This document shows positions 18,554 to 64,000 of a stretch of DNA of 64,000 nt, in pieces. A program made the position numbers and the translations under genes. Origin of the DNA: an uncultured Burkholderiales bacterium (GTDB lineage: Bacteria > Pseudomonadota > Gammaproteobacteria > Burkholderiales > Burkholderiaceae_C); contig CAIZSE010000078.1 in NCBI GenBank assembly GCA_903935585.1, forward strand, positions 36,866 to 100,865, written 5' to 3'. The notes under the pieces are model-generated. The model worked only from the letters and a program-made list of their open reading frames with translations. It made no database searches and was not told the origin of the DNA. Each line of letters starts with the position of its first letter. The first letter of the stretch is position 1.

Positions 18554-18578
18554 GAACTCCTGTTTAAGGAGTTTGCCT

Positions 18579-22486: not shown

Positions 22487-22561
22487 TGGGTTCTCCTGGT
22501 TTTATTTCAAGTTGGGCGGATTGATCCCCAGACCCTCATCGGCTGGGGATCAGGCTTGCAG

Positions 22562-23605: not shown

Positions 23606-23721
23606 TTCAAACTCCTGTTAAATTTCATAACCATGGGTTCCGTCGACCAGAATTGGTGCGACACGCTGAGGTTAGGTTTTGGGACAGGGAGTCAGTTCCT
23701 TTTTTCGAGGGGTTCGAAAAA

Positions 23722-27127: not shown

Positions 27128-27290
27128 AGCAGTAATAAAGAAGTAATATTAAGTCTTTGAGTTTTGCAAATTGGCTTGTTCCAAAACCGTCAAAACCTCT
27201 GAAGGTAAGGGCATTTCTCCCTCCAATATTGGATTTTCCTCAGGTAAGCTCATAGACAATTTATGTTTTCTACGAATAACCAAAAGCCGC

Positions 27291-28650: not shown

Positions 28651-28667
28651 ACAAAACCTAAAGAGCA

Positions 28668-32135: not shown

Positions 32136-32162
32136 TCAAGAACGTGAAAGACAAGTCCTAGC

Positions 32163-35519: not shown

Positions 35520-35521
35520 GC

Positions 35522-36634: not shown

Positions 36635-37875
36635 GCAAACACCACGAAAAACGACAAGTTCAAATTACCAATGTCACGACTGGGCAAACCCGACTTTCAG
36701 AACCAATGCCAGTGCAAGGCCCACGCACAGAAGCAGAAATCGATTCTGTCTTGTCACAAGATGCTGAGTCTGCACCCGTTGTGATGGTCCAGCAGGAGGT
36801 GATTAGCAGTCCTGATGAGAAGAAGTCCACCCCGAAGAAGTCGAAGCCTGAAATTGAGACGCTTGAACAGTTCATCTCTTATGTCTATTCACGTAAGGGG
36901 CAGCGTGCCTCGCTGTCATCAAAGGTAGAGCGTCTGATCGCAGAAAACCCTCGGCTCAATGACGAAGCTGAGTTGCGTTTATCGGGCCTAGCTCAAGCCG
37001 ATGAATGGTTGGCTGTACCGCGTGAACTTCTGCTCATTAGTCGTGAGGTGGTCGGTTTTCCGGCCTTGAGAGAGGCGTTTACATCGTTCGTTATGGATGT
37101 GATGTTGAAGCACCCAGCATTCGCTGCAGAGAGTTTGCAGGCGACAGTGCGTCACTTGCCTGACGCACCGTCCCCATTTGAGGCCCTAACAATGCTGTCA
37201 ACGTGGCAGCCGGCCCCCAAAAAAGCCGAAGAAGACAAGGAGGTCGCTTTCAAGCCTGCTGAAGTCCACGCAGGACGACGCAACGCGGTTAATCTTTTGG
37301 TGACATGGTTTTATTGTCACCGCAGTTTGAATTTAGAGGAGTTGGCTGGCCTGTTGATGCAGGTGTCATGGCAGGAGTCTGGGCGAACTCTGGAAACCGA
37401 TGCCGACAAGATTCGGGCATTGACGAGCCTGGACGACTCTGCTGTGCTTGGATGGCTTGGCCAGCGGTGGCGTCAGCAAATGATGGATGCACGCAACGCT
37501 CAAGCCCATTCAGTCAGGGAGTTTGAATCGGCTCGTACCCAAGTCGAAGCATTAAATGCTGAAATTACTCAGTTGCGCAGTGATCTTGTAGATCGTGATG
37601 CTCAGTTGATCAATTCGCGTGAGCAGAGTACCCAAGCCCTGACCGAACTGACAACACGCCATGCCGCAGAAACAATGCATTTGAGCCACGAGATTGAAAC
37701 GTTGCGTGGTCGTTTGGTGCGTCGTTTGAATGAAAGTACGGAGATGCTGGAGGTCGGCTTGTCTGCTTTACGTAGCAACACACCGAACATCAACGTCATG
37801 GTCCAACGCGCTGAGCGCGTGGTTGATGCTTTGCGTTTAGAACTCAAAAGCTTAGGGAGTGATGAAAATGCCTAA
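36631..37875 (+). CDS. Hypothetical protein with C-terminal coiled coil (insert gene 2)
   Basis: 414 aa, ATGA overlap with previous gene; heptad-rich C-terminal third. Confidence 0.75.
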   Translation: MSKHHEKRQVQITNVTTGQTRLSEPMPVQGPRTEAEIDSVLSQDAESAPVVMVQQEVISSPDEKKSTPKKSKPEIETLEQFISYVYSRKGQRASLSSKVERLIAENPRLNDEAELRLSGLAQADEWLAVPRELLLISREVVGFPALREAFTSFVMDVMLKHPAFAAESLQATVRHLPDAPSPFEALTMLSTWQPAPKKAEEDKEVAFKPAEVHAGRRNAVNLLVTWFYCHRSLNLEELAGLLMQVSWQESGRTLETDADKIRALTSLDDSAVLGWLGQRWRQQMMDARNAQAHSVREFESARTQVEALNAEITQLRSDLVDRDAQLINSREQSTQALTELTTRHAAETMHLSHEIETLRGRLVRRLNESTEMLEVGLSALRSNTPNINVMVQRAERVVDALRLELKSLGSDENA

Positions 37876-39694
37876 TAAAGAAGTTGTTCTCGGATTCGAC
37901 TTTGGCACAACGAACAGCCTCGCCTCAGTGGTCGTGGGTGATTCGGTCATTACTTTTCTAGACAATGAACAGCCCATACCTTCTGTTGTGAGTTTTGAGG
38001 GGGGTAAGGTTGAGGTCGGTCGTAAGGCTCGCGACAAACTGACAAGTGCAGGTTTGGGTGTCCAGGGCAGTACCGTACGCTCGCCAAAAACCTTGTTGGG
38101 CCGTGAAGAATTCATCATTGATGGCGTCAGAAGAGATCCGGTCAAGATGGTCGAGCACGTCTTGGAGCACGTTCGGCAGTTCGTGTTGCAAACCAGAGTC
38201 GGCCAAAATTTGAAGATGAATCGTGTCGTTGCGACCATTCCTGTAAACATGGAGGGTAGGCGACGTGCACTGTTGCGCCAGGCGTTCAGGCAGGCCGGTA
38301 TGAGTGTTGTGCAATTTGTTCACGAGCCACTGGCTGCTCTTTATGGCTACTTGCGTAATTCACAAGCTACCGATGATTTGGTTCGGCGTTACAACGGAAA
38401 ATTAGTCTTGGTTTTCGATTGGGGCGGTGGCACACTTGATTTGACTCTTTGCCGTGTTCTGGATGGTCTATTGGTTCAAGTTGCTAACGACGGCACTGAC
38501 GACGTTGGCGGTGACATCTTCGATGAAGCACTGCGCAATGAGGTCGAAAAAAGATCAATTCGACAATTAGGCCTAGGAGATGACGTTGAGGTCCTGCCCG
38601 AGGCAAGAAAACGTTTGTTGCATGAGTGCGAGCAAGCAAAAATTCAGCTCAGTGGCAAAAGCAATTGGACTGTTTATGTTGATCCTTACTATCAAAGTGA
38701 AAATAAATCTACGTTGGATGTCACTTTGTCCAGGGAGGATTTGCAGGACATCGTGGGTGGCCTGATAAGCAACGGTGTAGGTCGTATTGAACGTTTGCTT
38801 GAGCGTGAAGGATATTCCACCGCTTCTATTGAACTTTGTTTGGCTACGGGCGGTATGGTCAACATGCCAATGGTCAAAAATCGTTTAGATGAACTTTTTG
38901 GCCCAGGCCGTGTGCATGTTTCGAAAAACAGTGCTTCGGCGATTGCAGATGGGGCTGCTTGGGTTGCGCATGATGAGGCCAGGCTGCACTTGGCTAAAAA
39001 TATCGAGTTGACGCTTGCGCGTAACTCTTATTTGCCTCTTCTTACTGCTGGGGTAGAAATGCCCTTGGAGCGTGAGCAGCGTAAAGAACGTTTTTCGCTT
39101 TATTGCGTTGATCCAACAGATGGGTTTGGTAAGTTCAATGTCGTGAGTCCGCATCGTCCTGGACCACGTGTTCTTCCCGACGATAAGCGGCGGCCACTTT
39201 GCAGCATGCTTTTGAAAGTTGATTCAAAAGCAAACCCTTTCCGCGAACGAATCGAACTTGACTTGAGCATTGATGAGGACTTGGTCCTGAATTTAAATGC
39301 TTGGTCAATGAACCAAAAAGGCCAGGTTGTTGCACAGGTACATGATTTAGAGTTCGCCTTGGCTACACCCGGCGCTCATTCAGGATGGATCACTTCAGCC
39401 ATCATGGATGGCCAAGGTTCCTCAGGTGGTGGGCACGAAGCTGGTGACTTGGTTGCTCGATCAAACCTTGCTAATCGCGAGGACAACAGCCTGGTCCCAG
39501 GCGAGGTAATGTACAGAGCAGATCCAACTTATTTCTGGACTCACACAGGAAAACGGCCGCCTCAAATTCAAGAGGATGAACGTTTGTATTACGAGCCGTG
39601 TGTCATCTGTGGCCGATCATCAAACGATCCTTTGTGCATTTGCTCTAGTGGCACTGCTTACAGGCCGAATCATCCATCGAGCCCTTCAGTATGA
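37868..39694 (+). CDS. Atypical Hsp70/DnaK-family ATPase with C-terminal Cys cluster (insert gene 3)
   Basis: GFDFGTTNS, HEPLAA, VFDWGGGTLD, VGGDIFD, ATGGMVNMP Hsp70 motifs; ends CVICGRSSNDPLCIC; AGGGAG RBS before ATG 37868. Confidence 0.85.
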   Translation: MPNKEVVLGFDFGTTNSLASVVVGDSVITFLDNEQPIPSVVSFEGGKVEVGRKARDKLTSAGLGVQGSTVRSPKTLLGREEFIIDGVRRDPVKMVEHVLEHVRQFVLQTRVGQNLKMNRVVATIPVNMEGRRRALLRQAFRQAGMSVVQFVHEPLAALYGYLRNSQATDDLVRRYNGKLVLVFDWGGGTLDLTLCRVLDGLLVQVANDGTDDVGGDIFDEALRNEVEKRSIRQLGLGDDVEVLPEARKRLLHECEQAKIQLSGKSNWTVYVDPYYQSENKSTLDVTLSREDLQDIVGGLISNGVGRIERLLEREGYSTASIELCLATGGMVNMPMVKNRLDELFGPGRVHVSKNSASAIADGAAWVAHDEARLHLAKNIELTLARNSYLPLLTAGVEMPLEREQRKERFSLYCVDPTDGFGKFNVVSPHRPGPRVLPDDKRRPLCSMLLKVDSKANPFRERIELDLSIDEDLVLNLNAWSMNQKGQVVAQVHDLEFALATPGAHSGWITSAIMDGQGSSGGGHEAGDLVARSNLANREDNSLVPGEVMYRADPTYFWTHTGKRPPQIQEDERLYYEPCVICGRSSNDPLCICSSGTAYRPNHPSSPSV

Positions 39695-42021
39695 GCGATA
39701 AGTTACTTGACCGACTTGTATCGGCCTTAAACAAAGCGGCGGCAGTGAACAGTCAAGCTGCCGTTCCGCCTGCGGTTATTTTGTGGCCTGACAAAGACAA
39801 ACAATGGGAATCAGTCATTGCGCCATTGATGGCGTTAATGCCCCATGTATATAAATTGGGGCAGTTCAATCCTGCACTTCACTCAGGTCCGGCTATTTGG
39901 TTGAAATGTGCCATAGCGGGTTTTATGGATGACGCTACGAGAACTGAAATTCCAGTGATTTATTTGCCTGGTGTTGGACGTTCAGAGTTGAGGGCTATAG
40001 AGTCTTGCTCACGTGAGTTGCAACCGCTTGCTGAACTTCAATACCGTGGTGTTTTCTGGAGCCAGGTTAGTGCGAAAGATTGGACGATTGGCGCCTTTTT
40101 ATCCTCGAAAAATGGTGGTCTTGGGTTGGATGTGGCTCAAGATAGAGCGACTCAAGAGGCCTTAATTCAAGCGGTTGAAGCAGGGGTTCTGTTGGAGCGC
40201 TCAGTGTTAGAGCTGATGGGGCGTCCGATCAATGCTGCTTGGCTGAACAGTTTGTTGGCCCCTAATCCGACCCGTGATTTGTTGGTGTGGATGAATGACC
40301 CTGAGGCTGCCCATGCGAAGTGGTCCAAACAGCAGTGGGCAATTTTTGACAAGCGGGCTAAGGCTGATTTCGGTTTTGACCCCAAAGCTGATGGCGTTTT
40401 GGTTGCCGCAGAGAAGTTGGCCAAAGCAGAGGGCCAGTGGGCGGCTGTTTCTGAGCTGTACAAAGATTCGTTTGGCAGCTTTCCAAAGATTTTTGATTTG
40501 TTGGCTCAGGTTCAACCGCCTCAGCGTAATTTGTTTGATGGCTTTGAGGGGCAAGAGGGTTATCCACAGGCCAACGAAGGTGGAGAGTCTTCTTTGCGTT
40601 ACGCCCTGGCAGCTTGTGGTCCCATGATGCCTGACCAAGCGCGAGATGAAATTGCCAAGATCGAAAGAGATCATGGCGTTCGTCGCACTTGGCTTTGGGC
40701 GCGCATGGGGCAAGCACCTTTGGCCACGGCCCTGGAATTTCTGGCCACAGTGGCTGCCGCAAGCAAGCAATTGCCCGTGGGGGCCACCCCAGATGCATTG
40801 GCTTTGAGTTACCAACAAACCGGTTGGCAAGTAGATTTCGCCGCCATGCGGGCTTTGGCTGCGGTCACTTCCAAGGTGGATGTCGACGCCGTTTCATTGG
40901 CATTGCGTGCGGTCTATTTGCCTTGGCTTGAAGAGTCGGCCAAGCGTTTGCAAGACGCCGTCAAGACGGCTGGCGGTTTGCGTGTCGGTGCTCAAGCCAA
41001 TGGGGCAGAACCCGTTGCGGGTGTTTGCACTGTTTTTGTGGATGGTCTGCGCTATGACGTTGCCACACGATTGCAAGAGCTGTTGGGAAGTGTTGGAACG
41101 ACAACTTTGGATGCTGCATGGACCAGCATGCCTTCGGTGACGGCATCCGGCAAAGCGTGGTGTTCTCCCGTGGCACGTTGGATCAGCGGTGACCCAGCAG
41201 ACACAGAGTTCCAGCCGCGTGTATCTGCTGACGGCAAGCCGCTTTCAACTCACAACTTCAGAAAATTGTTGTCAGACCATGGTGTGCAGTTCTTAGACAA
41301 GCACGAGACTGGAAATGCTGCTGGTGCTGCTTGGACCGAGACTGGGGATTTGGACCACTATGGTCACCAACACGGTATCAGACTGGCCCGTGACATGGAA
41401 GTTCAGTTAGCCCAGGTAGTAGAACGAATTTTGGAGCTTGAGCAAGCGGGTTGGAAAAAGTTCCGCATAGTGACTGACCATGGTTGGTTGCTGCTGCCTG
41501 GTGGATTGCCCAAGTCAGAATTACCCAAGCATCAAGCTGAAACGCGCTGGGGGCGTTGCGCTGTCTTGAAGGATTCTGCCCATGGCACGCCGCTGACCTT
41601 TGGCTGGGATTGGTGCAATGACGTCCAAGTGGCTTACGCGCCTGGGGTTTCATCTTTTGTGGCAGGCAGCGACTATGCGCATGGGGGCATCAGCTTCCAA
41701 GAGTGTTGGGTGCCTGTTGTAACCCTGGAATCGGGAATGAGCGCTGTTGGCCAAGCCAAAGCCACCATTGACTCCGTGACCTGGAGGGGACTGCGGTGTA
41801 CGTTACTGGTGTCGTCACTGTCAGGTGACTTGAGCTTGGATATTCGTACCAAGCCCGCCCAGTCATCCAGCAGTCTGGTGTCGCAGCCCAAGCTGTTGGT
41901 GGATGGCAAGGCCAGTTTGGCCATCGTTGATGATGACCAATTGGGCGCTGCTGCTGTAGTGGTAGTCCTTGATACTCAAGGCAATGTGATTCAGAAAATG
42001 GCGACGACTGTCGGCGGATAA
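39691..42021 (+). CDS. pglZ: BREX PglZ alkaline-phosphatase-superfamily protein
   Basis: FVDGLRYD, TSMPSVTASGK, IVTDHGW, YAHGGISFQE. Confidence 0.88.
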   Translation: MSDKLLDRLVSALNKAAAVNSQAAVPPAVILWPDKDKQWESVIAPLMALMPHVYKLGQFNPALHSGPAIWLKCAIAGFMDDATRTEIPVIYLPGVGRSELRAIESCSRELQPLAELQYRGVFWSQVSAKDWTIGAFLSSKNGGLGLDVAQDRATQEALIQAVEAGVLLERSVLELMGRPINAAWLNSLLAPNPTRDLLVWMNDPEAAHAKWSKQQWAIFDKRAKADFGFDPKADGVLVAAEKLAKAEGQWAAVSELYKDSFGSFPKIFDLLAQVQPPQRNLFDGFEGQEGYPQANEGGESSLRYALAACGPMMPDQARDEIAKIERDHGVRRTWLWARMGQAPLATALEFLATVAAASKQLPVGATPDALALSYQQTGWQVDFAAMRALAAVTSKVDVDAVSLALRAVYLPWLEESAKRLQDAVKTAGGLRVGAQANGAEPVAGVCTVFVDGLRYDVATRLQELLGSVGTTTLDAAWTSMPSVTASGKAWCSPVARWISGDPADTEFQPRVSADGKPLSTHNFRKLLSDHGVQFLDKHETGNAAGAAWTETGDLDHYGHQHGIRLARDMEVQLAQVVERILELEQAGWKKFRIVTDHGWLLLPGGLPKSELPKHQAETRWGRCAVLKDSAHGTPLTFGWDWCNDVQVAYAPGVSSFVAGSDYAHGGISFQECWVPVVTLESGMSAVGQAKATIDSVTWRGLRCTLLVSSLSGDLSLDIRTKPAQSSSSLVSQPKLLVDGKASLAIVDDDQLGAAAVVVVLDTQGNVIQKMATTVGG

Positions 42022-42030
42022 GGAATAAAG

Positions 42031-44076
42031 ATGCAACTCGATGAATTGGACAGCAAGTCGACTAAAGCTTTTGAGGGCTATGTGGTCAGGAAAGATTTGG
42101 TTCGTACGTTCAGTCGCCAATTTCCGGTGCCAACGTACGTGGTGGAGTTTTTACTCGGGCGTTATTGCGCGACGACGGATGAAGCTGAAATCCAAGAGGG
42201 CATTGAAATCGTCCAACGCCAGTTGAGCTCCAGAACTGTCAAAGCCGGAGAGGAAGAGCTGTTCAAGGCGCGGGCCCGTGAATCTGGTTCAGTCAAGATC
42301 ATTGACATCATCACGGCTCGTTTGGATTCCAAAACCGACTCTTACGTTGCCACCTTGCCCAGCTTACGTCTGAACGATGTGCGCTTGACACCAGAGATGG
42401 TCAAAGACAATGAGCGCATGCTGACGGGTGGTTTTTATGCGGAAATCACCTTGGAGTACGACGCCTCCATAGCTCAAGAAAAAGGTGGTCGTCCATTTGG
42501 CGTCGAGTCATTGCGTGCGATCCAGCTGTCGAAACGTGAAGTGTTGGATGTGCTGGCTAAGGGCCGTGAAAGCTTCACCACTGCTGAATGGCGCGACTTG
42601 TTGTTGCGCAGTGTGGGTTTTGAGCCTGCGACTTTGTCTGAACGGGCCAAGGATGCGCTGTTTCTGCGAATGGTTCCATTCGTTGAGCGCAATTACAACC
42701 TGGTGGAGTTGGGGCCGCGTGGCACTGGTAAATCTCACTTGTTTCAACAGGTTTCACCTTACGCTCATTTGATCTCTGGCGGCAAAGCCACAGTAGCGCG
42801 GATGTTTGTGAACAATTCCAATGGGCAACGTGGTCTTGTCTGCCAATACGACGTGGTTTGTTTTGATGAGGTATCCGGGGTTTCTTTTGACCAAAAGGAT
42901 GGCGTCAACATCATGAAGGGCTACATGGAGAGCGGTGAATTCTCTCGTGGCAAAGAAAGCATCCGTGCAGATGGTTCCATAGTGCTGGTAGGTAACTTCG
43001 ATGTGGATGTGGAGCACCAGCAACGGGTAGGTCACCTGTTTAGCCCACTGCCACCAGAAATGCGTGATGACACAGCGTTCATGGACCGCATCCACTGCTT
43101 CTTGCCAGGCTGGGATGTACCCAAGCTGAACCCGTCGTTGTTTACAGAACATTTCGGCTTGGTCAGCGACTTTTTGTCGGAATGCTTTACGCAGCTGAGA
43201 AACCAGAGTCGTGTTTCTTCACTTCAGGGGCAAGTATTTTGGGGTGGTGCGCTTTCTGGGCGTGACATCAATGGGGTGAATAAAACCGTTAGCGGCTTGC
43301 TGAAGCTGATGTATCCAGACGCCAACAGCAAGGTCTCGCCGGAAGACCTGGAGTGGGCAGTACGTCTGGCATTGGAAGTGCGTCGTCGCGTCAAAGAACA
43401 GCAAAAACGCATTGGCGCTGCCGAGTTCAGAAACACACATTTCAGCTACACCATAGGGACCGAGGGCGTAGAGAAGTTTGTTTCAACACCTGAGTTGCAA
43501 AGCCAAGGCGGTATCGGCGATGAACCATTGGAGTGTGGACAAGTTTGGACTATTTCCCCTGGCGGTCAAGATGAACATCCTGGTCTTTTCAGACTTGAGG
43601 TGAATGAGGGGCCTGGCAGTGGTGTGAGGGTTCTTAATAACCCTGTTCCTCAGGCATTCAAAGAATCGATTCGTTGCGCAGAGCAAAACCTCTATGCACG
43701 CGCCATGCAGCTGGTTGGCGACCGCGATCCGCGCTCGCATGAATTCTCTGTACAGCTACGTGGCTTTGATGCTGCAAAGTCCGGTTCAAAAACAGGCGTT
43801 GCTGCCCTCATCGCTTTGTCAGGTGCTTTGCTCAAAAAGTCAGTGCGAGGCGGATTGATTGTGGTCGGCGAAGTCACTCTTGGCGGCACTATTGAGCCGA
43901 TTCATAACGCAGTGTCATTGGCTGAAATTGCTATTGAGAAAGGGGCCAAGGCTTTATTGCTGCCGGTGTCTTGTCGCAAACAACTATTTGACCTTTCAGA
44001 TGAAATGGCGACAAAGCTGGACATTGAGTTCTACCAAGATGGACGGGATGCATTGTTGAAGTCGCTGGCTGAATGA
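42031..44076 (+). CDS. brxL: BREX AAA+/Lon-like protein BrxL
   Basis: FPVPTYVVEFLLG, ELGPRGTGKSH Walker A, VCFDEV Walker B, C-terminal Lon-like domain (GEVTLGG). Confidence 0.9.
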   Translation: MQLDELDSKSTKAFEGYVVRKDLVRTFSRQFPVPTYVVEFLLGRYCATTDEAEIQEGIEIVQRQLSSRTVKAGEEELFKARARESGSVKIIDIITARLDSKTDSYVATLPSLRLNDVRLTPEMVKDNERMLTGGFYAEITLEYDASIAQEKGGRPFGVESLRAIQLSKREVLDVLAKGRESFTTAEWRDLLLRSVGFEPATLSERAKDALFLRMVPFVERNYNLVELGPRGTGKSHLFQQVSPYAHLISGGKATVARMFVNNSNGQRGLVCQYDVVCFDEVSGVSFDQKDGVNIMKGYMESGEFSRGKESIRADGSIVLVGNFDVDVEHQQRVGHLFSPLPPEMRDDTAFMDRIHCFLPGWDVPKLNPSLFTEHFGLVSDFLSECFTQLRNQSRVSSLQGQVFWGGALSGRDINGVNKTVSGLLKLMYPDANSKVSPEDLEWAVRLALEVRRRVKEQQKRIGAAEFRNTHFSYTIGTEGVEKFVSTPELQSQGGIGDEPLECGQVWTISPGGQDEHPGLFRLEVNEGPGSGVRVLNNPVPQAFKESIRCAEQNLYARAMQLVGDRDPRSHEFSVQLRGFDAAKSGSKTGVAALIALSGALLKKSVRGGLIVVGEVTLGGTIEPIHNAVSLAEIAIEKGAKALLLPVSCRKQLFDLSDEMATKLDIEFYQDGRDALLKSLAE

Positions 44077-53761: not shown

Positions 53762-54334
53762 TTAAGCCAACTCGACCGCAGCCTTCAACTGGCTTGGACT
53801 GCTGTACAAATATGCGGCAGTGGTTTGGATGCTGCGATGGCCGGCCAAAGTTTTGAGGATATGAATCGCAGTTCCCTTGTTGGCCAGTGAGGTCAAAAAC
53901 GTCCTGCGACCGCTGTGGCTGCTGGCGCCTTGCAGTCCTGCACCCGCGTACAACAAAGCAAAAGTCTGCGCCAGGCTGTTTGCGCTGAACCCAGTGAGGA
54001 TGCTTTTTTGACTGGCAAAGAACGGATAGCTTCTGTCTACACACTTAGCCTGTGCAGCATAAGCCTGCAACTCTTCACGCAATTTGATGTTGACGAAAAC
54101 TGTGCGAGCGTGTCTGCCCTTGGTCATGTCGGGTAGCAAGCGAATTTCTTCTTTGACAGTGCCATCTGTGTTGATTACGTCGCTCCAGCGCAAGCAGGCT
54201 ACTTCCCCAATGCGCAAACCCGCCAGGTGGGTGAGCAACATCATGGCCCGGTTGCGTTGCGCAAAGCGTCGCGTGTCTATGTAGTCCAGTACCTGAGCCA
54301 GTTCGTCTTTTGTCAGTGTTTTTGCCTGTGCCAT
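53762..54334 (-). CDS. Small tyrosine recombinase (catalytic domain only)
   Basis: GLRIGE (R), TKG (K), SHSGRRT (HxxR), LAGHRS, TAAYL (Y); AGGAGA RBS; 190 aa. Confidence 0.9.
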   Translation of the reverse strand: MAQAKTLTKDELAQVLDYIDTRRFAQRNRAMMLLTHLAGLRIGEVACLRWSDVINTDGTVKEEIRLLPDMTKGRHARTVFVNIKLREELQAYAAQAKCVDRSYPFFASQKSILTGFSANSLAQTFALLYAGAGLQGASSHSGRRTFLTSLANKGTAIHILKTLAGHRSIQTTAAYLYSSPSQLKAAVELA

Positions 54335-54878
54335 TTCAGTTCTCCTGTAATCATGTGTTTGCGTTAATTGCATTGTGTTTTCACATATTTATCTGGACAA
54401 CCGGAGACCCGCCAAAGTGGCGGGTTTCAGGCTAGATCTGCCTCAGGATGAACTTCCTGTGGATAACTTTTTCACTGAAATTTTCTTCAATGATTTCAAC
54501 GCTCAACCGGTGAAATCTTGTAAAAGCATGTTTTTCATAGATTTCCGCCGCGATCTCGCACTCTTTCAGTGCCCAGCAGAGCAGGGCGTCAAATAAGCCC
54601 TACAAGCGCTGATCGGTTGAGTCAGCACTCTGAGTATTCGGACCCAGAGAAAAACGTGTTGTAGGGCGTTTTACGCATGGACTTTTTGTGTGTGCTGCTT
54701 GGCGCATGTAAGCCTTGAGCGCCGAACAAATAACACACAACTACAACTCAATGCCAAAAACGAACAGACTCAAAAAGCGGTGTTGAGTCGGTATCCGTCC
54801 AATCTGTCGGGACTCTTGAAATCGGTTGTCCATCTGCTTGTCTGACACAAAACTGTGGTCACACAACGAGGACTACAG

Positions 54879-55235
54879 ATGAAAAAATTCGATGCAAACC
54901 AACTGTCACACTTCACCGGCACAGAGCGCTATTACCGAATCAGCCGCAAACACTTGCTAACCGATGGGACCAAATACCTGGCTGAAGAGGCAGAGTGTTT
55001 TTGGATGATGGATGCCGTGGCCAGTCACCTCATCGAGATTGGAACAGCGGATTGGTTTGTACAGATTCGCGTGACGGTGAAAGGCACCCGAGTAACCATG
55101 GTCTATGAGGACGGGAACGGGCATGAACATGCTCGCCAAGAGATTCCGTTCACCGACTTTCCCCTGGTTGAGCAAACGCTGTATGCATGCTGGGATGGGG
55201 ATCACTGGGTGATCATGTTGCCGAGTGAATATTGA
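54879..55235 (+). CDS. DUF6876-like protein
   Basis: LTDGTKYLAEEAECFWMMDAVAS...EDGNG...QEIPFTDFP...MLPSEY pattern recalled for this family. Confidence 0.65.
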   Translation: MKKFDANQLSHFTGTERYYRISRKHLLTDGTKYLAEEAECFWMMDAVASHLIEIGTADWFVQIRVTVKGTRVTMVYEDGNGHEHARQEIPFTDFPLVEQTLYACWDGDHWVIMLPSEY

Positions 55236-56816: not shown

Positions 56817-57419
56817 TCACTGATCACTCCAAGATTTTGACCACATGTGCTCCAAACCTTCGCGTAATTTGTGCTCAGGTGTGACGACAAAAGCAGGGGC
56901 GTAAATGTTGGGGGAATACGGCAACTTATCGGCCGCAGCCTGATCATTCTTTTTAGCCCAAGTGTGTGCCGTCACAAGTGATATGGCCAAAACACTGCCA
57001 GTAAGCCACATTGCAAACAAGCGCAGATTCAACCCTATGCGGCTTGCCAAGTGAATGTGAATCAATGCGGTCAGCGTTATAAGTACTGCATTTGGGATGT
57101 TGTGTATGTCAGTGGGCCATGGCCAGCCCAAGTTAAAGAACATCCACGGCAAGGCGTAGTTGAGAACCGCTGCGTCTATGAAGGACGCACCAGCTGCAAT
57201 GATGGTGTGTTCAGCAAGCCTTGTTCGACCTTGTTCTTGCCAAGTTACCCAGGACCATGCACTGATCCAACAAGCCAAGATGGCGATTTCCTCTATCATC
57301 AACTTAGTGATGAATGCTGTATCGGCGGCGCTGCTGTAGATTGGCAAATAGACCCACAGTTGAGCTGCTAGCCAAGCCAGGATGAAAGCGGGTGCGGCTA
57401 TGAGAGGTCTTGACATCAT
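56817..57419 (-). CDS. Multi-pass membrane protein
   Basis: Five to six hydrophobic segments; ATGA-coupled to the upstream protease. Confidence 0.7.
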   Translation of the reverse strand: MMSRPLIAAPAFILAWLAAQLWVYLPIYSSAADTAFITKLMIEEIAILACWISAWSWVTWQEQGRTRLAEHTIIAAGASFIDAAVLNYALPWMFFNLGWPWPTDIHNIPNAVLITLTALIHIHLASRIGLNLRLFAMWLTGSVLAISLVTAHTWAKKNDQAAADKLPYSPNIYAPAFVVTPEHKLREGLEHMWSKSWSDQ

Positions 57420-58717
57420 GGTTTAGCCTTCGGGGTAAAGCTCAGACTGTCCATACTTTTCAGCAAGATGGCGCGGGCGCTTTGATCATCAAAGCCAGAC
57501 ATACCGATGGCAACCAGCAATGCATCTTGGCCTGACACTAAGGGTGTGTATCGAAATCGATAGTCAAACAAGCCCGGGAGTTTTTCGACAGCACGTCTGC
57601 ATGCATGCAGTTGAATTGGCAAATCAAAACGCCCCCTCAAGCGTTGCTCCGTGCAATTCCAAGAAGCAGTAGGCCCATCGTTGTCTTTGACGTTACGCAG
57701 GCGCGTTAGTTGATCTTCAATCAACCGTGCCAAGCCATGGGCGCTCATTTTCTCGCTGCTGAACCAGAAACTGCCCATGACGATGTGGCCCGCGTTCTGT
57801 TGGTCCGAGATATACAAGCTCGTAGAAGAGTCGCACCGTTGGTCAACACGTTTGTAGTGGTCATTCGGAGTGTCTTTGCGAGCGGCAGAGCAGGGTTGAT
57901 CTCTAGAAATATCCCCTCTTACCTGAAACGGCCCAAGCCGCCTAACGCTGTGTGTTGGAAGGTCAAAACGCATCACGATCTGTTGATTGAATGCGCTGAC
58001 TTGGCGTGCGATGTCCTTGCGCAGTTCATCCAAACTGGGGGGCTTTTGAGGAGTCTTGCTGCGGATCATTTGACCCACAGCCTCAGCAGGGACTGCCAGT
58101 CCCACCAACTGGTATTGAGTACTGGTGGCCACGTTCACTCCAAGCACCCGACCTTCCGCATCCAGGGTTGGCCCACCGCTCATGCCGCCATTGATAGCGC
58201 CGCTGAAAATGATCAATGGCGTTGAGGTTTTGTCTGTGACGCCGTTAAACGTACCCGTCACGATGCTGTGTTGATAACCGCCTGGCTTGCCCATGGAATA
58301 GCCCGATTCACCACGGTCGGGCAAAGTCTCACGCATTTCCAACAAGGGGACCCGTAGGGTTTGTTCAACTTTCAAAATGGCCAGATCGTTCTGAATGTCT
58401 ACAGCCACGATTTCGGCCTTGAGCTCGCCTTGATCCATCGACACAATTTGCAGGGTGTGATCGTCCGGCTCAAAAATTGAATCTGAGATGGCGTGGTAGT
58501 TGGTGATGACCCAGTCTTTTCGGTGGGTCACAAAGCCACTGGCCACGGAAGAAACGCCCAAGTTGGTCCGATTTTTCGTTACCACTTCAACAACAGACGG
58601 ACGGATGCGCTCGTAGAGTTGGCGAGAGTTGGGTGGCGCTGCGAATGCAGTGATCGAAATCGAGCACAGAAGCAATATGGCCAAAAAGGGAGAAACAAGC
58701 CTGTTCGGCAAATGCAT
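57416..58717 (-). CDS. Exported trypsin-like (S1C/HtrA-type, no PDZ) serine protease
   Basis: Signal-like N-terminus; triad motifs ITNYHAI, NDLAIL, GGMSGGP. Confidence 0.85.
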   Translation of the reverse strand: MHLPNRLVSPFLAILLLCSISITAFAAPPNSRQLYERIRPSVVEVVTKNRTNLGVSSVASGFVTHRKDWVITNYHAISDSIFEPDDHTLQIVSMDQGELKAEIVAVDIQNDLAILKVEQTLRVPLLEMRETLPDRGESGYSMGKPGGYQHSIVTGTFNGVTDKTSTPLIIFSGAINGGMSGGPTLDAEGRVLGVNVATSTQYQLVGLAVPAEAVGQMIRSKTPQKPPSLDELRKDIARQVSAFNQQIVMRFDLPTHSVRRLGPFQVRGDISRDQPCSAARKDTPNDHYKRVDQRCDSSTSLYISDQQNAGHIVMGSFWFSSEKMSAHGLARLIEDQLTRLRNVKDNDGPTASWNCTEQRLRGRFDLPIQLHACRRAVEKLPGLFDYRFRYTPLVSGQDALLVAIGMSGFDDQSARAILLKSMDSLSFTPKAKP

Positions 58718-58765
58718 GGCCAAAACTCTCAAAATTATCAATATTGTGATGGTAGTGGATGGGTA

Positions 58766-60362: not shown

Positions 60363-60547
60363 TTAAATAACTGTCCATGGCGCTGCTTTGAGCCTCTCAT
60401 TAAGAAACTCAACGAGAGCCCTCACCATCGGCAGCAAAAACTTTCGTGTGGATAGACCGTGTAAATCCCCAGTGTTGCTGCCTGGTACTGTGGCAAGACT
60501 TCCACAAGAGCACCGCGTCGCAGCTGTCGCAATTGTTTGACCAAAAC
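60363..60547 (-). pseudogene. Degraded C-terminal remnant of a LysR-type regulator
   Basis: One minus frame gives LRRGALVEVLPQYQAATLGIYTVYP; after a 1-nt shift near 60450 it continues TRKFLLPMVRALVEFLNERL*, the usual LysR C-terminus. Confidence 0.5.
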
Positions 60548-60551
60548 CTAG

Positions 60552-61733
60552 GGAAGGTCTGCAAAAGTCAGCCCCGTGACGGCCTGATCTGAGACAGTTG
60601 GGCAATGAAACAAATGAGCCTTGCCACCACTGGATTTGAGCTTGTCACCAAGCGCACGCGCAAGCGGGAATTCCTCGATGAGATGAACCTGGTGATCCCG
60701 TGGTCTGAGTTGTTGTCGTTGATTGCACCTCACGCGCCTGCGGGCAAGACCGGTCGGCCTCCGTTTGCCACAGAAGTGATGCTGCGCATACACCTGCTCC
60801 AGCAGTTCTTTGGTCACTCCGACCCCGCCATGGAAGAGGCGTTGCATGACATCCCGCTGTACCAAGATTTTGCCCACCTGGACGCAGGCATGACCCGTTT
60901 GCCTGACGAAACCACTATCCTGCGGTTCCGCCACATGCTCGAAGCGCATGGGCTCGGTCAGCAGATTCTGGCCACTGTCAACGCCAAACTGATCGATCGC
61001 GGTCTGATGCTCAAGACCGGTACTGTGGTGGACGCCACGTTGATTGCTGCGCCCAGCTCGACCAAGAACGACAAAGGCGAGCGAGACCCTGAGATGCACC
61101 AAACCAAGAAGGGCAACCAGTGGCACTTTGGCATGAAGGCTCACATTGGTGTGGACGCTGAATCGGGTTTGGTGCATACGGTCACAACCACAGCGGCCAA
61201 CGCTCACGACATCACCCAAGCGCATGCCTTGCTGCACGGCGAGGAGGAAATGGTCTTTGCCGATTCGGGTTACCGGGGCGTTGAAAAGCGCGAGGAGATT
61301 CAGGAGCAACACCCTGATGTGGACTGGCAAATTGCAATGACACCAGGCAAGCGCAAAACGCTGAACAAAACCAAACCCAGTCACGCGTTGCGCGACAAGC
61401 TGGAAAAGCTCAAGGCCAGCATCCGGGCCAAGGTAGAGCACCCGTTTCGGGTGATCAAGTGCCAGTTCGGACATCGCAAGGCGCGTTACCGGGGCTTGGC
61501 CAAAAACACCAACCAGTTGCTGGTGATGTTTGCGCTGTCGAACTTGTGGATGGTGCGCAAACGAATATTGCAGGGAGCGCAGGCATGAGTGCGCCTGCAG
61601 CGTGGGCAAAGGCCCGAAAAGAGGACTCATTGAGTCCAAAAGCATGGAAATTGGGCGTGAATTCAACGCCGGTTTCAGCATGTGAACATTCACGCATCAG
61701 CTCGCGCTTTGGCGGGGGTTATGCAGACCTTCC
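60552..61733 (+). mobile_element. IS5-family insertion sequence, 1182 bp
   Basis: 12-bp perfect terminal inverted repeats GGAAGGTCTGCA (60552-63) / TGCAGACCTTCC (61722-33); CTAG duplicated at 60548-51 and 61734-37. Confidence 0.95.
60605..61588 (+). CDS. IS5-family DDE transposase
   Basis: VVDATLI, QWHFGMKAHIGVD, ADSGY, IRAKVEHPF; uninterrupted 327 aa. Confidence 0.95.
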   Translation: MKQMSLATTGFELVTKRTRKREFLDEMNLVIPWSELLSLIAPHAPAGKTGRPPFATEVMLRIHLLQQFFGHSDPAMEEALHDIPLYQDFAHLDAGMTRLPDETTILRFRHMLEAHGLGQQILATVNAKLIDRGLMLKTGTVVDATLIAAPSSTKNDKGERDPEMHQTKKGNQWHFGMKAHIGVDAESGLVHTVTTTAANAHDITQAHALLHGEEEMVFADSGYRGVEKREEIQEQHPDVDWQIAMTPGKRKTLNKTKPSHALRDKLEKLKASIRAKVEHPFRVIKCQFGHRKARYRGLAKNTNQLLVMFALSNLWMVRKRILQGAQA

Positions 61734-62170
61734 CTAGGTCGTATCCTAATCAGACCGATTCAAGCTCGTCATTCAAGGATACGACCACAGCTTCATTCAC
61801 CGACCACCGCTCTACGCCCCTCTGTAGGGCCGTCAACTCGACAGCCTCCCGGAGCCGAGAAATCAAATACTCAGGCCCAAAGCAACCAACGGGCGTCTTG
61901 TGCACTGGGCGTCCGGATTTCCGTTGTAATGACCTGACTTCGTCAGTTGACCTTGGCCTTGACTGGTTTGCACAGGACTTGATCTAAGCAAGGAGTTGCA
62001 TGCCTGCGGCATCAGGTGGCTGCGCCACTTCAAGATCCCATTTGGATCGGGTGTTTTTTCACTTGAATGATTGAAATTACTATATGCATGTGACTTTTTT
62101 TCGTAATTGCCGAAATCTATGAAAAGGCGCTAAATACATGTGAAATCCTGGATTTCCGCCATCAAGGAGT

Positions 62171-63763
62171 GTGCGCCCTGTGATCAAAGTCACCGTTCAT
62201 GAATCTGTCGAGACTGCTTTGCAAAAGGCGTTTCCTAGGCCAGCAACCTCAGCTGCGCGTGCATTGGCTAAATACATTGCTGTTGTCGAATACATGCTGT
62301 TCGATGCTCTACAGCATGGCAGAACCCCTGAACAACTCAAGCTTGATTTGTACGCGGTTTCAATGGAACAACTGGCCAATAAGGGAGGGCAAATTGGGCC
62401 TAAAAAGGTTCGCATGCACAAATGGCTGCGAGAAAACAATTTGGAGTTACTGCAAACCGTTGTTCCAGGCAGCAAATTCACCGGCCAGTACACACAGGTG
62501 AAGTTGTCGCCTTTGATCTCAATCCAGAACACTTTGACCGTACCTCCTGGATCATTGGCTACTGCAAGCACGGATGAGGAAATTGACGCATACCTGAGTG
62601 GTGATCCAGTCTCCAATAAGGCGTTGTTCGATCACCTTTACCCTGAATACGGACAGGTTTGGCAAGAAGAAAAACTGGCTGAACTTTTCCATTGGGTGCC
62701 GGTAGACGTCGAATCCGTCAAGGCCTACCTGTACTGGGTAGAAATGGAATCTACGCACATCAAGGACGCTCAAAAAGACACGATTCTTCGTCAAGCCTTG
62801 ACGATCATTAACGTTGCCACTTTTACCAAGGGCTATTACGTACAGCGGGTCAAACCCAGTCAGTTTGGGCGTACGTACTACGAAGGCACCAGCGTGCAAA
62901 ACGTCAACAAAGACTTGAGGCGTGCCATGCTGGGCAATTGCTGGGAGTACGACATCCGCAGCAGTGTGGTGGCATGGAAGATGGGTTACGCCAGAAGCCT
63001 GTTGTGTGATTCGGGATTGGATGTGGATTTGCGCAAGCATTTCTCAGCCACTTTGCTGTACCTGGAAGACAAGGCCGACTTAATGGCAACGATCAGGTAT
63101 TTCACGTTTGGCGACACGAGTCCAGTGCCCAAAGACCTGCAGCCTGTCTTGCTCAAGCAAGCTTTCACAGCCATTAGCTTTGGTGCTCGTCAAACGGCCA
63201 ATGGTTGGTTAGATGCTTCAGGCAATTGGACCAACCCAGCCTTGGTGGATATTTTGAAAAACGGAGACGATAGAAAGCGATTTCTCTCCGATAAGACCGT
63301 CAAGCTTTTCATCAAAGAACAAAACGCTTTGGACGACTACCTGTATGAGCTCGTTAAAAAGCACCGTCCAGACTTATTGCAAGAAAGCTTCCTTCAAACC
63401 GACAGTGGTAGGCCCAGCAAAGCCAAGGTCATGGCTTACCTGTATCAGCACGGCGAGACACAGGTGATGGATATCGTCAGGCACGTAGCAATGACAAAAG
63501 GTCACACACCGATTGCCAATGTTCATGACGCCATCTTCTTCAAGCGTCGTTTGGGCGTGGATTTCAAGACCGAGATTGAAATGCAGATGCGCGAGCAAAC
63601 GGGCAACCCTTATTGGCATTTGACCCCTAAGCAGTTAGAGCGTTACAAACCGCGTTCTTTGAACGCTGCTACCGAGGAAAGCGCGCACAAGAAAAGAATC
63701 GAGCAAGAGGAAGCTTTGGCCAAGGGCTACAAATCGGTGTTTCCCAACATCTTGATTGGTTAA
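62171..63763 (+). CDS. Divergent family-A polymerase-like protein
   Basis: FGRTYY...SVQN, EYDIRSS (motif A-like), KQAFTAISFG (motif B-like), NVHDAIFF (motif C-like); start may be GTG 62180 given RBS spacing. Confidence 0.55.
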   Translation: MRPVIKVTVHESVETALQKAFPRPATSAARALAKYIAVVEYMLFDALQHGRTPEQLKLDLYAVSMEQLANKGGQIGPKKVRMHKWLRENNLELLQTVVPGSKFTGQYTQVKLSPLISIQNTLTVPPGSLATASTDEEIDAYLSGDPVSNKALFDHLYPEYGQVWQEEKLAELFHWVPVDVESVKAYLYWVEMESTHIKDAQKDTILRQALTIINVATFTKGYYVQRVKPSQFGRTYYEGTSVQNVNKDLRRAMLGNCWEYDIRSSVVAWKMGYARSLLCDSGLDVDLRKHFSATLLYLEDKADLMATIRYFTFGDTSPVPKDLQPVLLKQAFTAISFGARQTANGWLDASGNWTNPALVDILKNGDDRKRFLSDKTVKLFIKEQNALDDYLYELVKKHRPDLLQESFLQTDSGRPSKAKVMAYLYQHGETQVMDIVRHVAMTKGHTPIANVHDAIFFKRRLGVDFKTEIEMQMREQTGNPYWHLTPKQLERYKPRSLNAATEESAHKKRIEQEEALAKGYKSVFPNILIG

Positions 63764-63871: not shown

Positions 63872-64000
63872 ATGTCAGGTCTTAACGCATTGAAATTCAT
63901 CGCCAGCAAGCGTCAGCAGGGCACAAGCCCAGCGCATGCAAGACGGCAAAAGCTCAGCGCCAAGCTGCACGAGCAAATTCAAATGGCCAAAGCCGTTCAG
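63872..64000 (+). CDS. DUF6641-like protein, N-terminal part (runs off window)
   Basis: AGGAG RBS; MSGLNALKFIASKRQQGTSPAHARRQKLSAKLHEQIQMAKA pattern. Confidence 0.55.
   Translation, partial: MSGLNALKFIASKRQQGTSPAHARRQKLSAKLHEQIQMAKAVQ

Follow-up and report, generated by a model that had tools for sequence, protein, structure and literature searches.

The window, the whole 64,000-nucleotide stretch of Burkholderiales DNA analyzed here, contains near its right-hand end an open reading frame (ORF) of 530 aa with a GTG start (62171..63763, forward strand). The GTG at 62180 is the likelier start, since homologues open at MIK and the position and spacing of the ribosome-binding site (AAGGAG, 62164-62169) point to it; the gene, annotated here as encoding a family A/TV-Pol-like polymerase of 527 aa, would thus occupy 62180..63763 (+), with the GTG at 62171 being that of the mechanical ORF call. 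A search of the window with the family HMM found no second or degraded copy of the polymerase. Assembled metatranscriptome contigs span pieces of the ORF, at low-level coverage.

Directly downstream lies a DUF6641 gene, of which the first 43 codons precede the window end (63872..64000, +); these match the N-terminus of the full gene at another locus (L016), and the family name is a Pfam assignment. This arrangement, with DUF6641 next after the polymerase and on the same strand, recurs in 54 of 72 loci, and one homologue (P0157) is an in-frame fusion of the two. The wider backbone has the order short recombinase, DUF6876, cargo, polymerase, DUF6641, Pro-rich protein and integrase, with tyrosine recombinases flanking the polymerase gene. 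In the window, the short tyrosine recombinase (203 aa; Pfam PF00589; cluster 3, in 42 loci) is encoded at 53762..54373 (-) and the DUF6876 backbone gene (cluster 4, in 39 loci; Pfam PF21781, assigned on the L047 member) at 54855..55235 (+); variable cargo sits between the DUF6876 gene and the polymerase gene. An earlier reading of this DNA from sequence only had placed the polymerase gene in the backbone of a mobile element, and synteny with the short integrase, DUF6876 and DUF6641 across the 72 loci bears this out. An IS5-family insertion sequence (60546..61739; 21-nt inverted repeats, DDE transposase at 60605-61588) is inserted upstream of the conserved leader described below, outside the polymerase module.

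The island belongs to Limnohabitans and is inserted at tRNA-Val, with its boundary at the 3' end of the tRNA-Val gene; only part of the lake population carries it. Its cargo includes defense genes, namely a full type 1 BREX system and a pair of genes that contains a protease. The polymerase homologues form over 1049 clusters at the 90% identity level and 610 at the 50% level, mostly from freshwater Burkholderiales and always within the syntenic island backbone, and several genomes hold 2-3 copies of the gene. Isolates with the island include Limnohabitans sp. 2KL-51, Bal53, Rim28 and G3-2. No homologue was matched in GenBank phages or PLSDB plasmids by tblastn, and a scan of IMG/VR found no relative of the polymerase. 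We considered an amplified state of the island and saw no sign of over-replication, its depth being below chromosome depth in four source-lake metagenomes; as for an extrachromosomal form, the 10.4-kb contig L028 lacks terminal overlap and ends within a gene.

The same reading had called the gene an orphan, which, given the number of homologue clusters, is true of its annotation only. Pfam (searched for a polymerase match at E up to 10), PHROGs, NCBIfam, PADLOC and PDB sequences were queried with the single sequence or a 105-sequence profile, and none recognizes the polymerase; the profile, run against PDB sequences with an E cutoff of 10, matched none. Alignments with individual polymerases all fall below significance. 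With hhalign, E. coli Pol I aligns weakly (E 0.28), T7 DNA polymerase aligns over motif-level stretches only (E 0.48) and T7 RNA polymerase over 26 residues around motif C (IHDS; E 0.15), while hmmsearch against Pol I aligned motif C (VHDE).

The polymerase was modeled with AlphaFold2 (pLDDT 81, pTM 0.60), and the best 50 Foldseek matches of the model in the PDB are all family A DNA polymerases, led by Klenow (E 3.4e-6, probability 1.00) and followed by apPOL, Taq, T7 DNA polymerase and Pol theta, with TM values of 0.3-0.38. This agrees with the palm fold that had been proposed from the motifs. Among the viral models of BFVD, the best matches are uncharacterized phage proteins and, next, virophage replication proteins. 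The best annotated matches are replication proteins of virophages and giant viruses (Zamilon, Qinghai Lake virophage; E 1e-10 to 1e-7), and canonical phage PolA scores worse than these. We take the virophage replication proteins to carry the polymerase domain of the transposon-virus polymerases (TV-Pols). In the model, a thumb of two helices (180-192 and 199-218) is followed by strands 222-229 and 235-238 around R234; the palm and fingers comprise strand 257-263 with D261, the fingers helices within 266-442, and strands 447-451 and 454-457, between which lies H452-D453.

Residue invariance was assessed in an alignment of 105 diverse homologues (25-49% identity). Eleven residues are invariant in 105/105: G233, R234, R250, D261, K329, F337, G338, Q426, E429, H452 and D453. 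The four motifs quoted in the sequence-only reading, all present in the translation in the order given there, are therefore not chance matches. The first, FGRTYYEGTSVQN (aa 232-244; 62864-62902, +), is a beta-hairpin with the invariant G233 and R234, and in the weak hhalign register against E. coli Pol I it is the counterpart of TGRLSS..PNLQN (R668). Motif A, WEYDIRSS (aa 258-265; 62942-62965, +), places the invariant D261 in a beta-strand, and motif C, NVHDAIFF (aa 450-457; 63518-63541, +), places H452-D453 at the turn of a hairpin, each as expected for these motifs in the secondary structure of the model. Motif B, on the O-helix, is KQAFTAISFG (aa 329-338; 63155-63184, +), with K329, F337 and G338 invariant and a helix at 324-336 in the model. 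The helix preceding motif C bears YQHGET (63443..63460, +) with the invariant Q426 and E429, which, going by order and spacing, we tentatively take to correspond to the PxQGxxAD motif of Pol I (Q849).

In several respects the motifs are not canonical. The full motif B, RxxxKxxxFxxxYG, is not found, the only invariants of the O-helix being K329, F337 and G338: the position four before K329 is variable and that four after is Thr in 86/105 sequences, so the Arg of RxxxK is not conserved. Since the hhalign and hmmsearch alignments are sub-significant, the O-helix register is ambiguous (K329 may equal K758 or R754). No invariant fingers Asp is seen in the 105-sequence alignment. The steric-gate position, 266, is Val, Ala or Ser and once Met, and the residue after HD is Ala, Gly, Ser or Cys; Glu, which in Pol I is both the steric gate that excludes rNTPs and the last residue of HDE, occurs at neither position in any of the 105 sequences. 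With RxxxK reduced to one invariant Lys and the HDE Glu absent, activity could be altered. These departures could also mean that a catalytically dead polymerase fold is reused as the element's DNA-binding regulator or as a structural protein, and RRM-only, probably inactive 'Pol' proteins do occur in related elements (PMC10061031). We consider this most unlikely, however: across 105 diverse sequences there is no variation at the two metal-binding Asp positions, at the Lys of the O-helix, at the Arg of the hairpin or at the Q/E motif, and such invariance of catalytic-motif residues argues for selection on catalysis.

Ahead of the thumb, the first ~170 aa (62171..62680, +) form an extra region that is mixed alpha/beta by the secondary structure of the model and has no Pfam match at E up to 10. 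It appears to be a family-specific N-terminal domain of ~130-170 aa, with the thumb helices and the Arg-bearing hairpin starting from about residue 173 in the AlphaFold2 model. An unrelated N-terminal half had been described from the sequence; an extra region does exist, but it is confined to these first ~130-170 aa. That it might be a 3'-5' exonuclease domain was ruled out, and it is also too short for one; it may instead bind DNA. The model thus supports assignment of the protein to the family A superfamily, with a predicted palm, fingers and thumb and, as had been claimed, with no exonuclease domain. This assignment draws on one predicted structure together with the order of the motifs.

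Upstream of the gene, a terminator-like hairpin, GATCCCATTTGGATC, followed by a T-run (62034..62058, +) comes just ahead of a conserved non-coding block, AATTACTATATGCATGTGACTTTTTTT (62075..62101, +), which is a candidate cognate site: an origin or priming site, or an unusual promoter. Of the 81 loci fetched, 60 carry the pattern of the block, ACTATAWGNNTGTGAC (~25 nt); every match lies on the gene's strand, and the pattern is kept even at loci whose protein is only 37-48% identical. The block contains a GTGTGAC half-site and a T-run, and iteron- or palindrome-like repeats come next. In the window these make up an operator- or iteron-like leader (62109..62156) with GCCGAAATCTATGAAAA, CTAAATA (62130-62136), a second CATGTGA and a palindrome, GAAATCC-T-GGATTTC, at 62142-62156; at variant loci the equivalent place holds iterons of 21-22 bp or a palindrome formed from the GTGTGAC half-site. 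Inside GCCGAAATCTATGAAAA, on the reverse strand at 62112-62122, lies the repeat TCATAGATTTC, and both this repeat and the palindrome had already been noticed ahead of the gene. Allowing up to one mismatch, TCATAGATTTC has 4 matches in the window against 0.51 expected, a number reached in 0/100 shuffles. A second copy of TTTTCATAGATTTCCGC at 54532..54548 (+) is inverted relative to 62109-62125, and more copies at 17465-17497 adjoin the island's end. The leader matches no RNA family in Rfam.

A block of this kind raises the question of whether the gene encodes a small promoter-specific single-subunit RNA polymerase that follows T7-like logic, the block being the promoter of its own operon and sometimes of other genes. 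The two kinds of enzyme share a palm superfamily, and a T7-like polymerase would account for an asymmetric, orientation-locked block of ~25 nt that accompanies the gene and lies in intergenic DNA, 38-130 nt ahead of same-strand ORFs. Some elements have 2-4 copies, of which a few directly precede other ORFs, and this pattern suits a promoter no less well than an origin. The 520 bp upstream of the gene hold no sigma-70 consensus promoter, the terminator-like hairpin stands ahead of the block, and the ACTATA(A/T)G core of the block, in our view, resembles phage-type promoters, although this may be chance. In the protein, HD followed by a small residue resembles the HDS of T7 RNA polymerase and is unlike HDE, and the steric gate is Val or Ala, not Glu.

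Against this, 0/50 of the best PDB fold matches are RNA polymerases, and the protein is ~350 aa shorter than T7 RNA polymerase (527 vs 883 aa); to our knowledge, the other single-subunit RNA polymerases are about the size of the T7 enzyme or larger. The O-helix aromatic is Phe, not the 2'-OH-sensing Tyr. Most elements, the window included, have a single block, which fits an origin better, and several duplicated blocks stand 155-240 nt apart with no ORF between them. Among the assembled metatranscriptome contigs, none has a 5' end at the block, and one runs through it. On balance, we regard a dedicated RNA polymerase as unlikely.

The model of the partner protein, DUF6641 (pLDDT 70), has a helix, 5-6 short strands in a beta-meander and two further helices. 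That it is an OB-fold single-stranded DNA-binding protein is unsupported: Foldseek finds no PDB match for the full-length model at E <= 0.001, the best being prefoldin at E 0.095. As the fold search covered the full-length model, DUF6641 may still hold a small beta-barrel. Our literature search found no publication on DUF6641 or DUF6876.

The genomic setting bears on two further explanations. At loci L001, L002 and their relatives, the polymerase is closely preceded by umuD-umuC and DUF3024, and lack of proofreading is typical of specialized polymerases, as would suit a DNA polymerase of the repair or translesion type that travels as island cargo and has no role in the replication of the element. 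However, most loci, the window among them, lack umuDC, the constant neighbors of the gene are backbone genes and integrases, and neither a tightly co-conserved cis site nor a dedicated partner is expected for a repair enzyme; we hold this to be very unlikely. The defense cargo of the island and the fact that the polymerase and DUF6641 form a two-gene operon of unknown function are, in turn, compatible with a template-independent or signaling polymerase of an undescribed anti-phage system. A template-independent defense polymerase had been among the functions proposed from the sequence, and it finds no support here: neither the polymerase nor DUF6641 nor DUF6876 has a PADLOC-DB 2.0 match at E <= 0.001, the pair sits in the syntenic backbone beside integrases and not in the variable cargo slot, family A motifs presumed to contact the template (R234 and Q426, by inferred correspondence) are kept, and an upstream DNA site is conserved together with the gene. 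A defense role for the pair is, in our estimate, highly improbable.

Within the family A superfamily, the best reading is that the island polymerase is closest to the TV-Pol group, a family defined by Iyer, Abhiman and Aravind in 2008 and predicted to be the primase-polymerases of integrase-bearing elements (PMC2579912). The modeled features in common are those of a minimal family A-like polymerase: an antiparallel pair of thumb helices, an invariant Arg on a beta-hairpin, a two-Asp RRM palm and fingers inserted after the first palm strand. Like the island polymerase, TV-Pols are never linked to nucleases, are found beside lambda-type integrases in the mobile elements of bacteria, where other mobile elements and defense genes abound, and in a subset have an extra N-terminal domain; the virophage replication proteins are also the best annotated structural neighbors in BFVD. 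There are differences. The fingers have a single invariant Lys (KxxxT..FG) and no conserved Asp was seen in them, whereas TV-Pols have RxxxK and a conserved Asp; a D5-like helicase, to which TV-Pols may be fused or linked when not encoded with an integrase, resolvase or transposase, is absent from both the protein and its neighborhood; and TV-PolN is described as all-helical, in contrast to the mixed alpha/beta N-terminal region here.

According to PMC7581432, no TV-Pol other than CcPol-MP of SCCmec had been biochemically characterized as of 2020. CcPol-MP, a presumed distant relative of the island polymerase, belongs with the 'PolA-SSB' primases and is a proven A-family primase dependent on a small partner protein (PMC7581432, PMC10061031). 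The likeness extends to an A-family catalytic subunit that lacks functional proofreading, a second, small gene that comes next in the operon (here DUF6641), a place in the core of an integrative element beside a recombinase, and a specific DNA site near the module, which is a candidate in our case. DUF6641 can be likened to MP by its position only: MP is an OB fold, whereas the DUF6641 model has no OB or SSB match. SCCmec elements are found in Bacillota and use serine recombinases at rlmH or ssrA, in contrast to the tyrosine integrases and tRNA gene of the Burkholderiales island, and CcPol-MP is followed by the Cch2 helicase, whereas none was found at the island locus. CcPol is annotated as an A-family polymerase (PMC10061031), unlike the island protein, which matches no Pfam family.

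Pol I (Klenow, KlenTaq) provides the best PDB fold matches and the same order of motifs: a TGRLSS-like hairpin, an R682-like Arg, the motif A Asp, the O-helix Lys..FG, a Q849-like Gln and the motif C HD. The island polymerase differs from it in having neither a 5'-3' nor a 3'-5' exonuclease domain, in showing no significant sequence similarity, in the replacement of HDE by HDA, in Val or Ala for the steric-gate Glu, and in the lack of a conserved O-helix Arg and Tyr. The piPolB of pipolins, a primer-independent polymerase encoded by an integrative bacterial element (PMC10061031), has a family B fold, and the resemblance to it is one of analogy only.

Bringing these comparisons together, the explanation that we favor, with moderate confidence, is a minimal TV-Pol-like primase-polymerase of an integrative element that acts with DUF6641 at an origin-like leader. 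After excision of the island, the polymerase would work together with the small DUF6641 protein made from the gene directly downstream, and the two would recognize the conserved leader immediately ahead of the polymerase gene. There the pair would begin nucleic-acid synthesis without a primer and then extend the product, serving as the island's own replication initiator, much as CcPol-MP serves SCCmec. The fold, the conserved catalytic residues, the synteny, the DUF6641 fusion and the conserved DNA site have been shown, whereas we infer that the enzyme is a primase, that the leader is an origin and which nucleotides are used. Neither a helicase nor a P-loop protein nor a nuclease was found near the polymerase gene or in the conserved downstream genes, and since no helicase is encoded nearby, a host helicase would need to be recruited. 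Counting against the scheme are this lack of a helicase, the failure of every sequence comparison to link the protein significantly to a polymerase family, the missing OB-fold match of DUF6641, the low depth of the island relative to the chromosome, and the negative searches of plasmids, GenBank phages and IMG/VR. A broader idea, which we find conceivable but doubtful, is that the polymerase, its DUF6641 subunit and the 25-nt block form a pair of enzyme and cognate site that achieves a primer-free start at specific double-stranded DNA. The enzyme would then be either a mini RNA polymerase specific for a promoter or a DNA primase-polymerase specific for an origin.

Proteins of this kind have been described before, both as TV-Pols (PMC2579912) and as the CcPol-MP primase, characterized in 2020 (PMC7581432). 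Self-priming polymerases of the family A superfamily are represented by a single characterized example, CcPol-MP of SCCmec, and here a large subfamily (610 clusters at 50% identity) that no sequence library recognizes occupies the conserved core of defense-carrying islands, in this case with BREX, in abundant freshwater bacteria (Limnohabitans, Polynucleobacter). Because a well-conserved candidate site and a dedicated partner are at hand, how a Pol I-like enzyme becomes a site-specific initiator is directly testable. Were the enzyme and the block truly a cognate pair, this would be the smallest site-specific initiating polymerase known in the Pol I/T7 superfamily, widespread in freshwater Burkholderiales islands and perhaps of use as an orthogonal module for replication or transcription. 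If the polymerase replicates the excised island, it would help to explain how such islands persist and spread.

The polymerase gene appears in the ORF listing of the window as 62171..63763 (+), encoding 530 aa from a GTG start. The four ordered motifs picked out by the sequence-only reading are all present in the translation and in the order proposed: FGRTYYEGTSVQN (aa 232-244), WEYDIRSS (258-265), KQAFTAISFG (329-338) and NVHDAIFF (450-457). The real start is probably GTG 62180, since 30 out of 30 homologues have their first residue at the counterpart of residue 4 (MIK...) and an AAGGAG box (62164-62169) lies 10 nt from this codon versus only 1 nt from GTG 62171. The protein has no meaningful match in Pfam (E up to 10), PHROGs, NCBIfam or PDB sequences. 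However, the gene is not the orphan it was taken for: large protein collections contain more than 1049 clusters of relatives at 90% identity (E <= 1e-3), or 610 representatives at 50% identity, which are always called 'hypothetical protein' where any source supplies a name. A genome scan located 77 homologue loci. Most belong to freshwater Burkholderiales (Limnohabitans, Polynucleobacter, and Comamonadaceae or Oxalobacteraceae MAGs), a few to Gammaproteobacteria, and some genomes carry two or three copies. The closest genomes, at 92-96% identity, are Limnohabitans isolates, and we therefore assign the window to Limnohabitans; it comes from a lake metagenome, of which runs X25-X28 contain 98% of its sampled words. 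Metatranscriptome contigs indicate that relatives may be transcribed at a low level, with DNA carry-over as a possible source.

We built an AlphaFold2 model of the polymerase on a 31-sequence alignment (mean pLDDT 81, pTM 0.60). Its best 50 Foldseek matches in the PDB are exclusively family A DNA polymerases, which bears out the family-A-like assignment: Klenow 1kfd ranks first (E 3.4e-6), and apicoplast polymerase, Taq, T7 DNA polymerase, M. smegmatis Pol1, Pol theta and DpoZ are among the others. The probability is 1.00 throughout and the TM-scores are 0.3-0.38, the usual range for mobile multi-domain polymerases. The top matches in BFVD, at E 1e-31 and 27% identity, are true homologues: uncharacterised proteins of comparable size labelled 'uncultured Caudovirales'. 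Virophage and giant-virus replication proteins rank second (E 1e-10 to 1e-7, rmsd ~5 Å over ~340 columns), the named ones being Zamilon 'DNA replication protein', Qinghai Lake virophage 'helicase/primase/polymerase', and matches from Pyramimonas orientalis virus and Catovirus; ordinary phage PolA proteins rank behind them (E 1e-6 and weaker). The matched virophage proteins carry the transposon-virus polymerase (TV-Pol) domain fused to a D5-like helicase.

In the model, the order of secondary-structure elements fits the TV-Pol / Pol I core: a two-helix thumb (helices 180-192 and 199-218), a hairpin around R234 (strands 222-229 and 235-238), the strand bearing D261 (257-263), helical fingers (266-442), H452-D453 at a turn between strands 447-451 and 454-457, and helix 463-477 with strand 483-489 closing the palm. 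As had been claimed, an exonuclease domain is missing, and the model leaves no space for one. The extra N-terminal region also exists, as an alpha/beta region, but it spans the first 130-170 residues rather than half of the protein. Directly after the O-helix, residues 343-360 (window 63197-63250) form a family-specific Trp/Gly-rich loop, GW.D..G.W.NPALV, which is kept in close relatives, is modelled with pLDDT below 50 and may be a contact point for the template or for the initiating nucleotide.

Across 105 homologues (25-49% identity), G233, R234, R250, D261, K329, F337, G338, Q426, E429, H452 and D453 are invariant, and the view that the fold is inactive has little support. The register against Pol I and T7 RNA polymerase comes from hhalign alignments that are all weak and sub-significant: FGRTYY..SVQN falls on TGRLSS..NLQN of E. 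coli Pol I (R668), LRRA on IRQA of Pol I (R682), and IHDA on IHDS of T7 RNA polymerase or VHDE of Pol I. The O-helix register is ambiguous. While hhalign pairs K329 with R754, the predicted end of the helix and the pattern of invariance suggest that K329 = K758 and F337-G338 = Y766-G767 is the better fit. Unlike DNA polymerase I, the family has Ala, Gly, Ser or Cys and never Glu after HD, carries Val, Ala or Ser (Met once) at motif A Asp +5 in place of the steric-gate Glu, and keeps one invariant Lys and the FG pair in an O-helix without conserved Arg or Tyr. An HD followed by a small residue in motif C and a missing steric gate are in keeping with the main rival to a primase-polymerase, a promoter-specific mini RNA polymerase, whereas protein size and fold ranking argue against it, and we consider it unlikely. 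Sugar selectivity is not readable from sequence.

The leader of the polymerase gene is better conserved than the protein itself. At 62075-62101 (+) it contains a block of ~25 nt, (A)ATTACTATA[A/T]GCRTGTGACTTTTT, which 60 of the 81 fetched loci have in the form ACTATAWGNNTGTGAC, always on the strand of the gene, with the copy preceding the gene 38-105 nt before the start codon. Strand and spacing hold at 37-48% protein identity (L058, L059, L061, L068, L073, L074). There is one copy in the window; some elements carry 2-4, in the same orientation throughout, with a few of them 50-130 nt ahead of other ORFs and others spaced 155-240 nt from each other without an intervening ORF. The block's fixed orientation and its position before genes would suit a promoter for a mini RNA polymerase, but most elements have a single block and tandem blocks occur without genes between them. 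CTAAATA lies downstream of the block, as do inverted or direct repeats based on GAAATC and CATGTGA, and the palindrome GAAATCC-T-GGATTTC reported earlier maps to 62142-62156. In variant loci this place in the leader is taken by iterons (four of 21 bp in L024, three of 22 bp in L057) or by a GTGTGACTCTG/CAAAGTCACAC palindrome (L042). A terminator-like hairpin (62034-62048) and a T-run lie ahead of the block; we found no sigma-70 consensus promoter in 61740-62260 and no Rfam match in the leader region. Two short hairpins, ATGCC-TGC-GGCAT and GTGGC-TGC-GCCAC (61990-62030), also precede the block, and other lineages have different palindromes at this place, such as GACCCAT-TT-ATGGGTC and GCACATGTGC: the sequence changes, the palindromic character is retained.

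The upstream repeat that had been noted, GAAATCTATGA (= TCATAGATTTC on the - strand), is indeed there, at 62112-62122. Allowing up to one mismatch, the TCATAGATTTC 11-mer has 4 matches in the window versus 0.51 expected, a number reached by 0 of 100 shuffles. It recurs in the intergenic region between the short recombinase and DUF6876 (54535) and twice next to the island end (17465, 17487), a distribution that points to a shared DNA-binding protein encoded by the element. The motif TTTTCATAGATTTC(C/G)G, present as two tandem copies at the island end (17465-17497), at 54532-54548 and, inverted, upstream of the polymerase (62109-62125), is probably a shared operator or arm-type site for such a protein.

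ORF clustering of 72 loci, annotated with Pfam and PHROGs, gives a recurrent order: a reverse-strand short tyrosine recombinase of ~200 aa, followed by DUF6876, variable cargo, the polymerase, DUF6641 and a Pro-rich protein (143-190 aa), these four genes being in forward orientation. The order ends in one of two ways, with a 341-360-aa integrase or with five unknown genes ahead of an integrase of 460 aa. The proposed association of the polymerase with recombinase, DUF6876, DUF6641 and integrases is thus borne out. In the window the recombinase occupies 53762-54373 (-) and DUF6876 54855-55235 (+), and the DUF6641 gene starts at 63872 (+) and is incomplete at the window end. DUF6641 follows the polymerase on the same strand in 54 of the 72 loci. 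One homologue of 650 aa (P0157) is an in-frame fusion of polymerase residues 1 to ~490 with DUF6641 (504-637, Pfam E 5.7e-13), a single case that may stem from an error in sequencing or assembly. An AlphaFold2 model of DUF6641 (pLDDT 70) has a long helix, five or six short strands that include an invariant KPWWW stretch, and two helices; Foldseek turned up neither a significant PDB match nor an OB fold with it, and prefoldin came closest (E 0.095). Our literature search found no mention of DUF6641 or DUF6876.

Between DUF6876 and the polymerase, the window carries DUF2130, a trypsin-like protease pair, an HTH protein and an IS5-family insertion sequence. The pair (56817-58741, -) consists of a 441-aa serine protease, which PADLOC models of RT-Protease_XI, Avs1b and LmuA match weakly over their protease domains, and a co-oriented 200-aa protein; because it recurs as cargo (L004, L006, L022), it may be a small defence module. 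The polymerase itself has no PADLOC match, and the earlier option of a template-independent defence polymerase has little support. A repair polymerase is a further reading with little behind it. The insertion sequence (60546-61739; 21-nt terminal inverted repeats, 95% complementary; DDE_Tnp_1 transposase at 60605-61588) was inserted ~340 bp upstream of the conserved leader, and its 2-3-fold higher metagenome depth implies further copies. In several relatives (L016 at 8730-9460, L005, L006, L025, L028, L045, L054, L066), the polymerase gene is directly preceded by a probable toxin-antitoxin stabilisation pair: a P-loop protein resembling zeta toxin (170-193 aa, GPNGAGKTT) and, upstream of it, a partner of 68-73 aa. 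The window lacks this pair. The left part of the island cargo holds a complete type 1 BREX system (27171-44076, PADLOC E 0 to 1e-292) with BrxC (28668-32135), PglX (32163-35519), PglZ (39691-42021) and BrxL (42031-44076); the likely BrxA and BrxB genes are ORFs 27171-28091 and 28081-28650, and two further ORFs (36631-37875 and 37859-39694) lie between PglX and PglZ.

The left island boundary is the 3' end of tRNA-Val (17303-17377). Lake metagenome contigs diverge exactly at 17377-17379, and also at 17426, and island depth in three source lake samples is roughly half that of the chromosome (~18, 31 and 85 versus 25-50, 45-100 and 100-220); only a fraction of the Limnohabitans population therefore carries the island. 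Depth in these metagenomes gave no excess island copy number, and no amplified or circular form was seen. Depth is ~4-fold higher over 54006-54672, which takes in the 5' portion of the short recombinase gene plus adjacent intergenic DNA, with small alternative joints at 54402/54594 and 54500-54515/54587-54595; this segment appears common to several elements or variants in the community. Between the tRNA and a 449-aa integrase of the 460-aa class (cluster 7; 20342-21691) lie GntR and two PhyH dioxygenase genes (17835-20260), cargo in L006 and L076 too. The integrase adjoins 213-aa and 379-aa proteins, relatives of which flank polymerase homologues in L069 and L078. This stretch (20342-24465) contains no polymerase gene or remnant and may be a second, reduced element or rearranged backbone.

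Polymerases of this kind are already known as TV-Pol and PolA-type primases of mobile elements. The TV-Pol family was defined by Iyer, Abhiman and Aravind in 2008 (PMC2579912): its members, with predicted primase-polymerase activity, are never linked to nucleases and either have a fused or linked D5-like helicase or combine an N-terminal domain with neighbouring lambda-type integrases, resolvases or transposases. CcPol of SCCmec, the one tested member, extends primers unaided, but its de novo priming requires MP, a small protein for which an OB fold was later predicted. The preferred priming site coincides with a nearby site bound by Cch2, the helicase encoded next to it (PMC7581432, PMC10061031). 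The present subfamily differs in having no match to any existing sequence model, a KxxxT..FG O-helix and HDA motif C, no helicase encoded nearby, tyrosine integrases at a tRNA gene and a strikingly conserved 25-nt site, and its partner DUF6641 gave no OB-fold match in a full-length search. Taken together, five features fit a module that would initiate replication of an integrative element: the fold, the invariant catalytic residues, the place in a backbone linked to integrases, a dedicated partner, and an iteron-like leader conserved along with the gene. We lean, with moderate confidence, towards a TV-Pol-like primase-polymerase.
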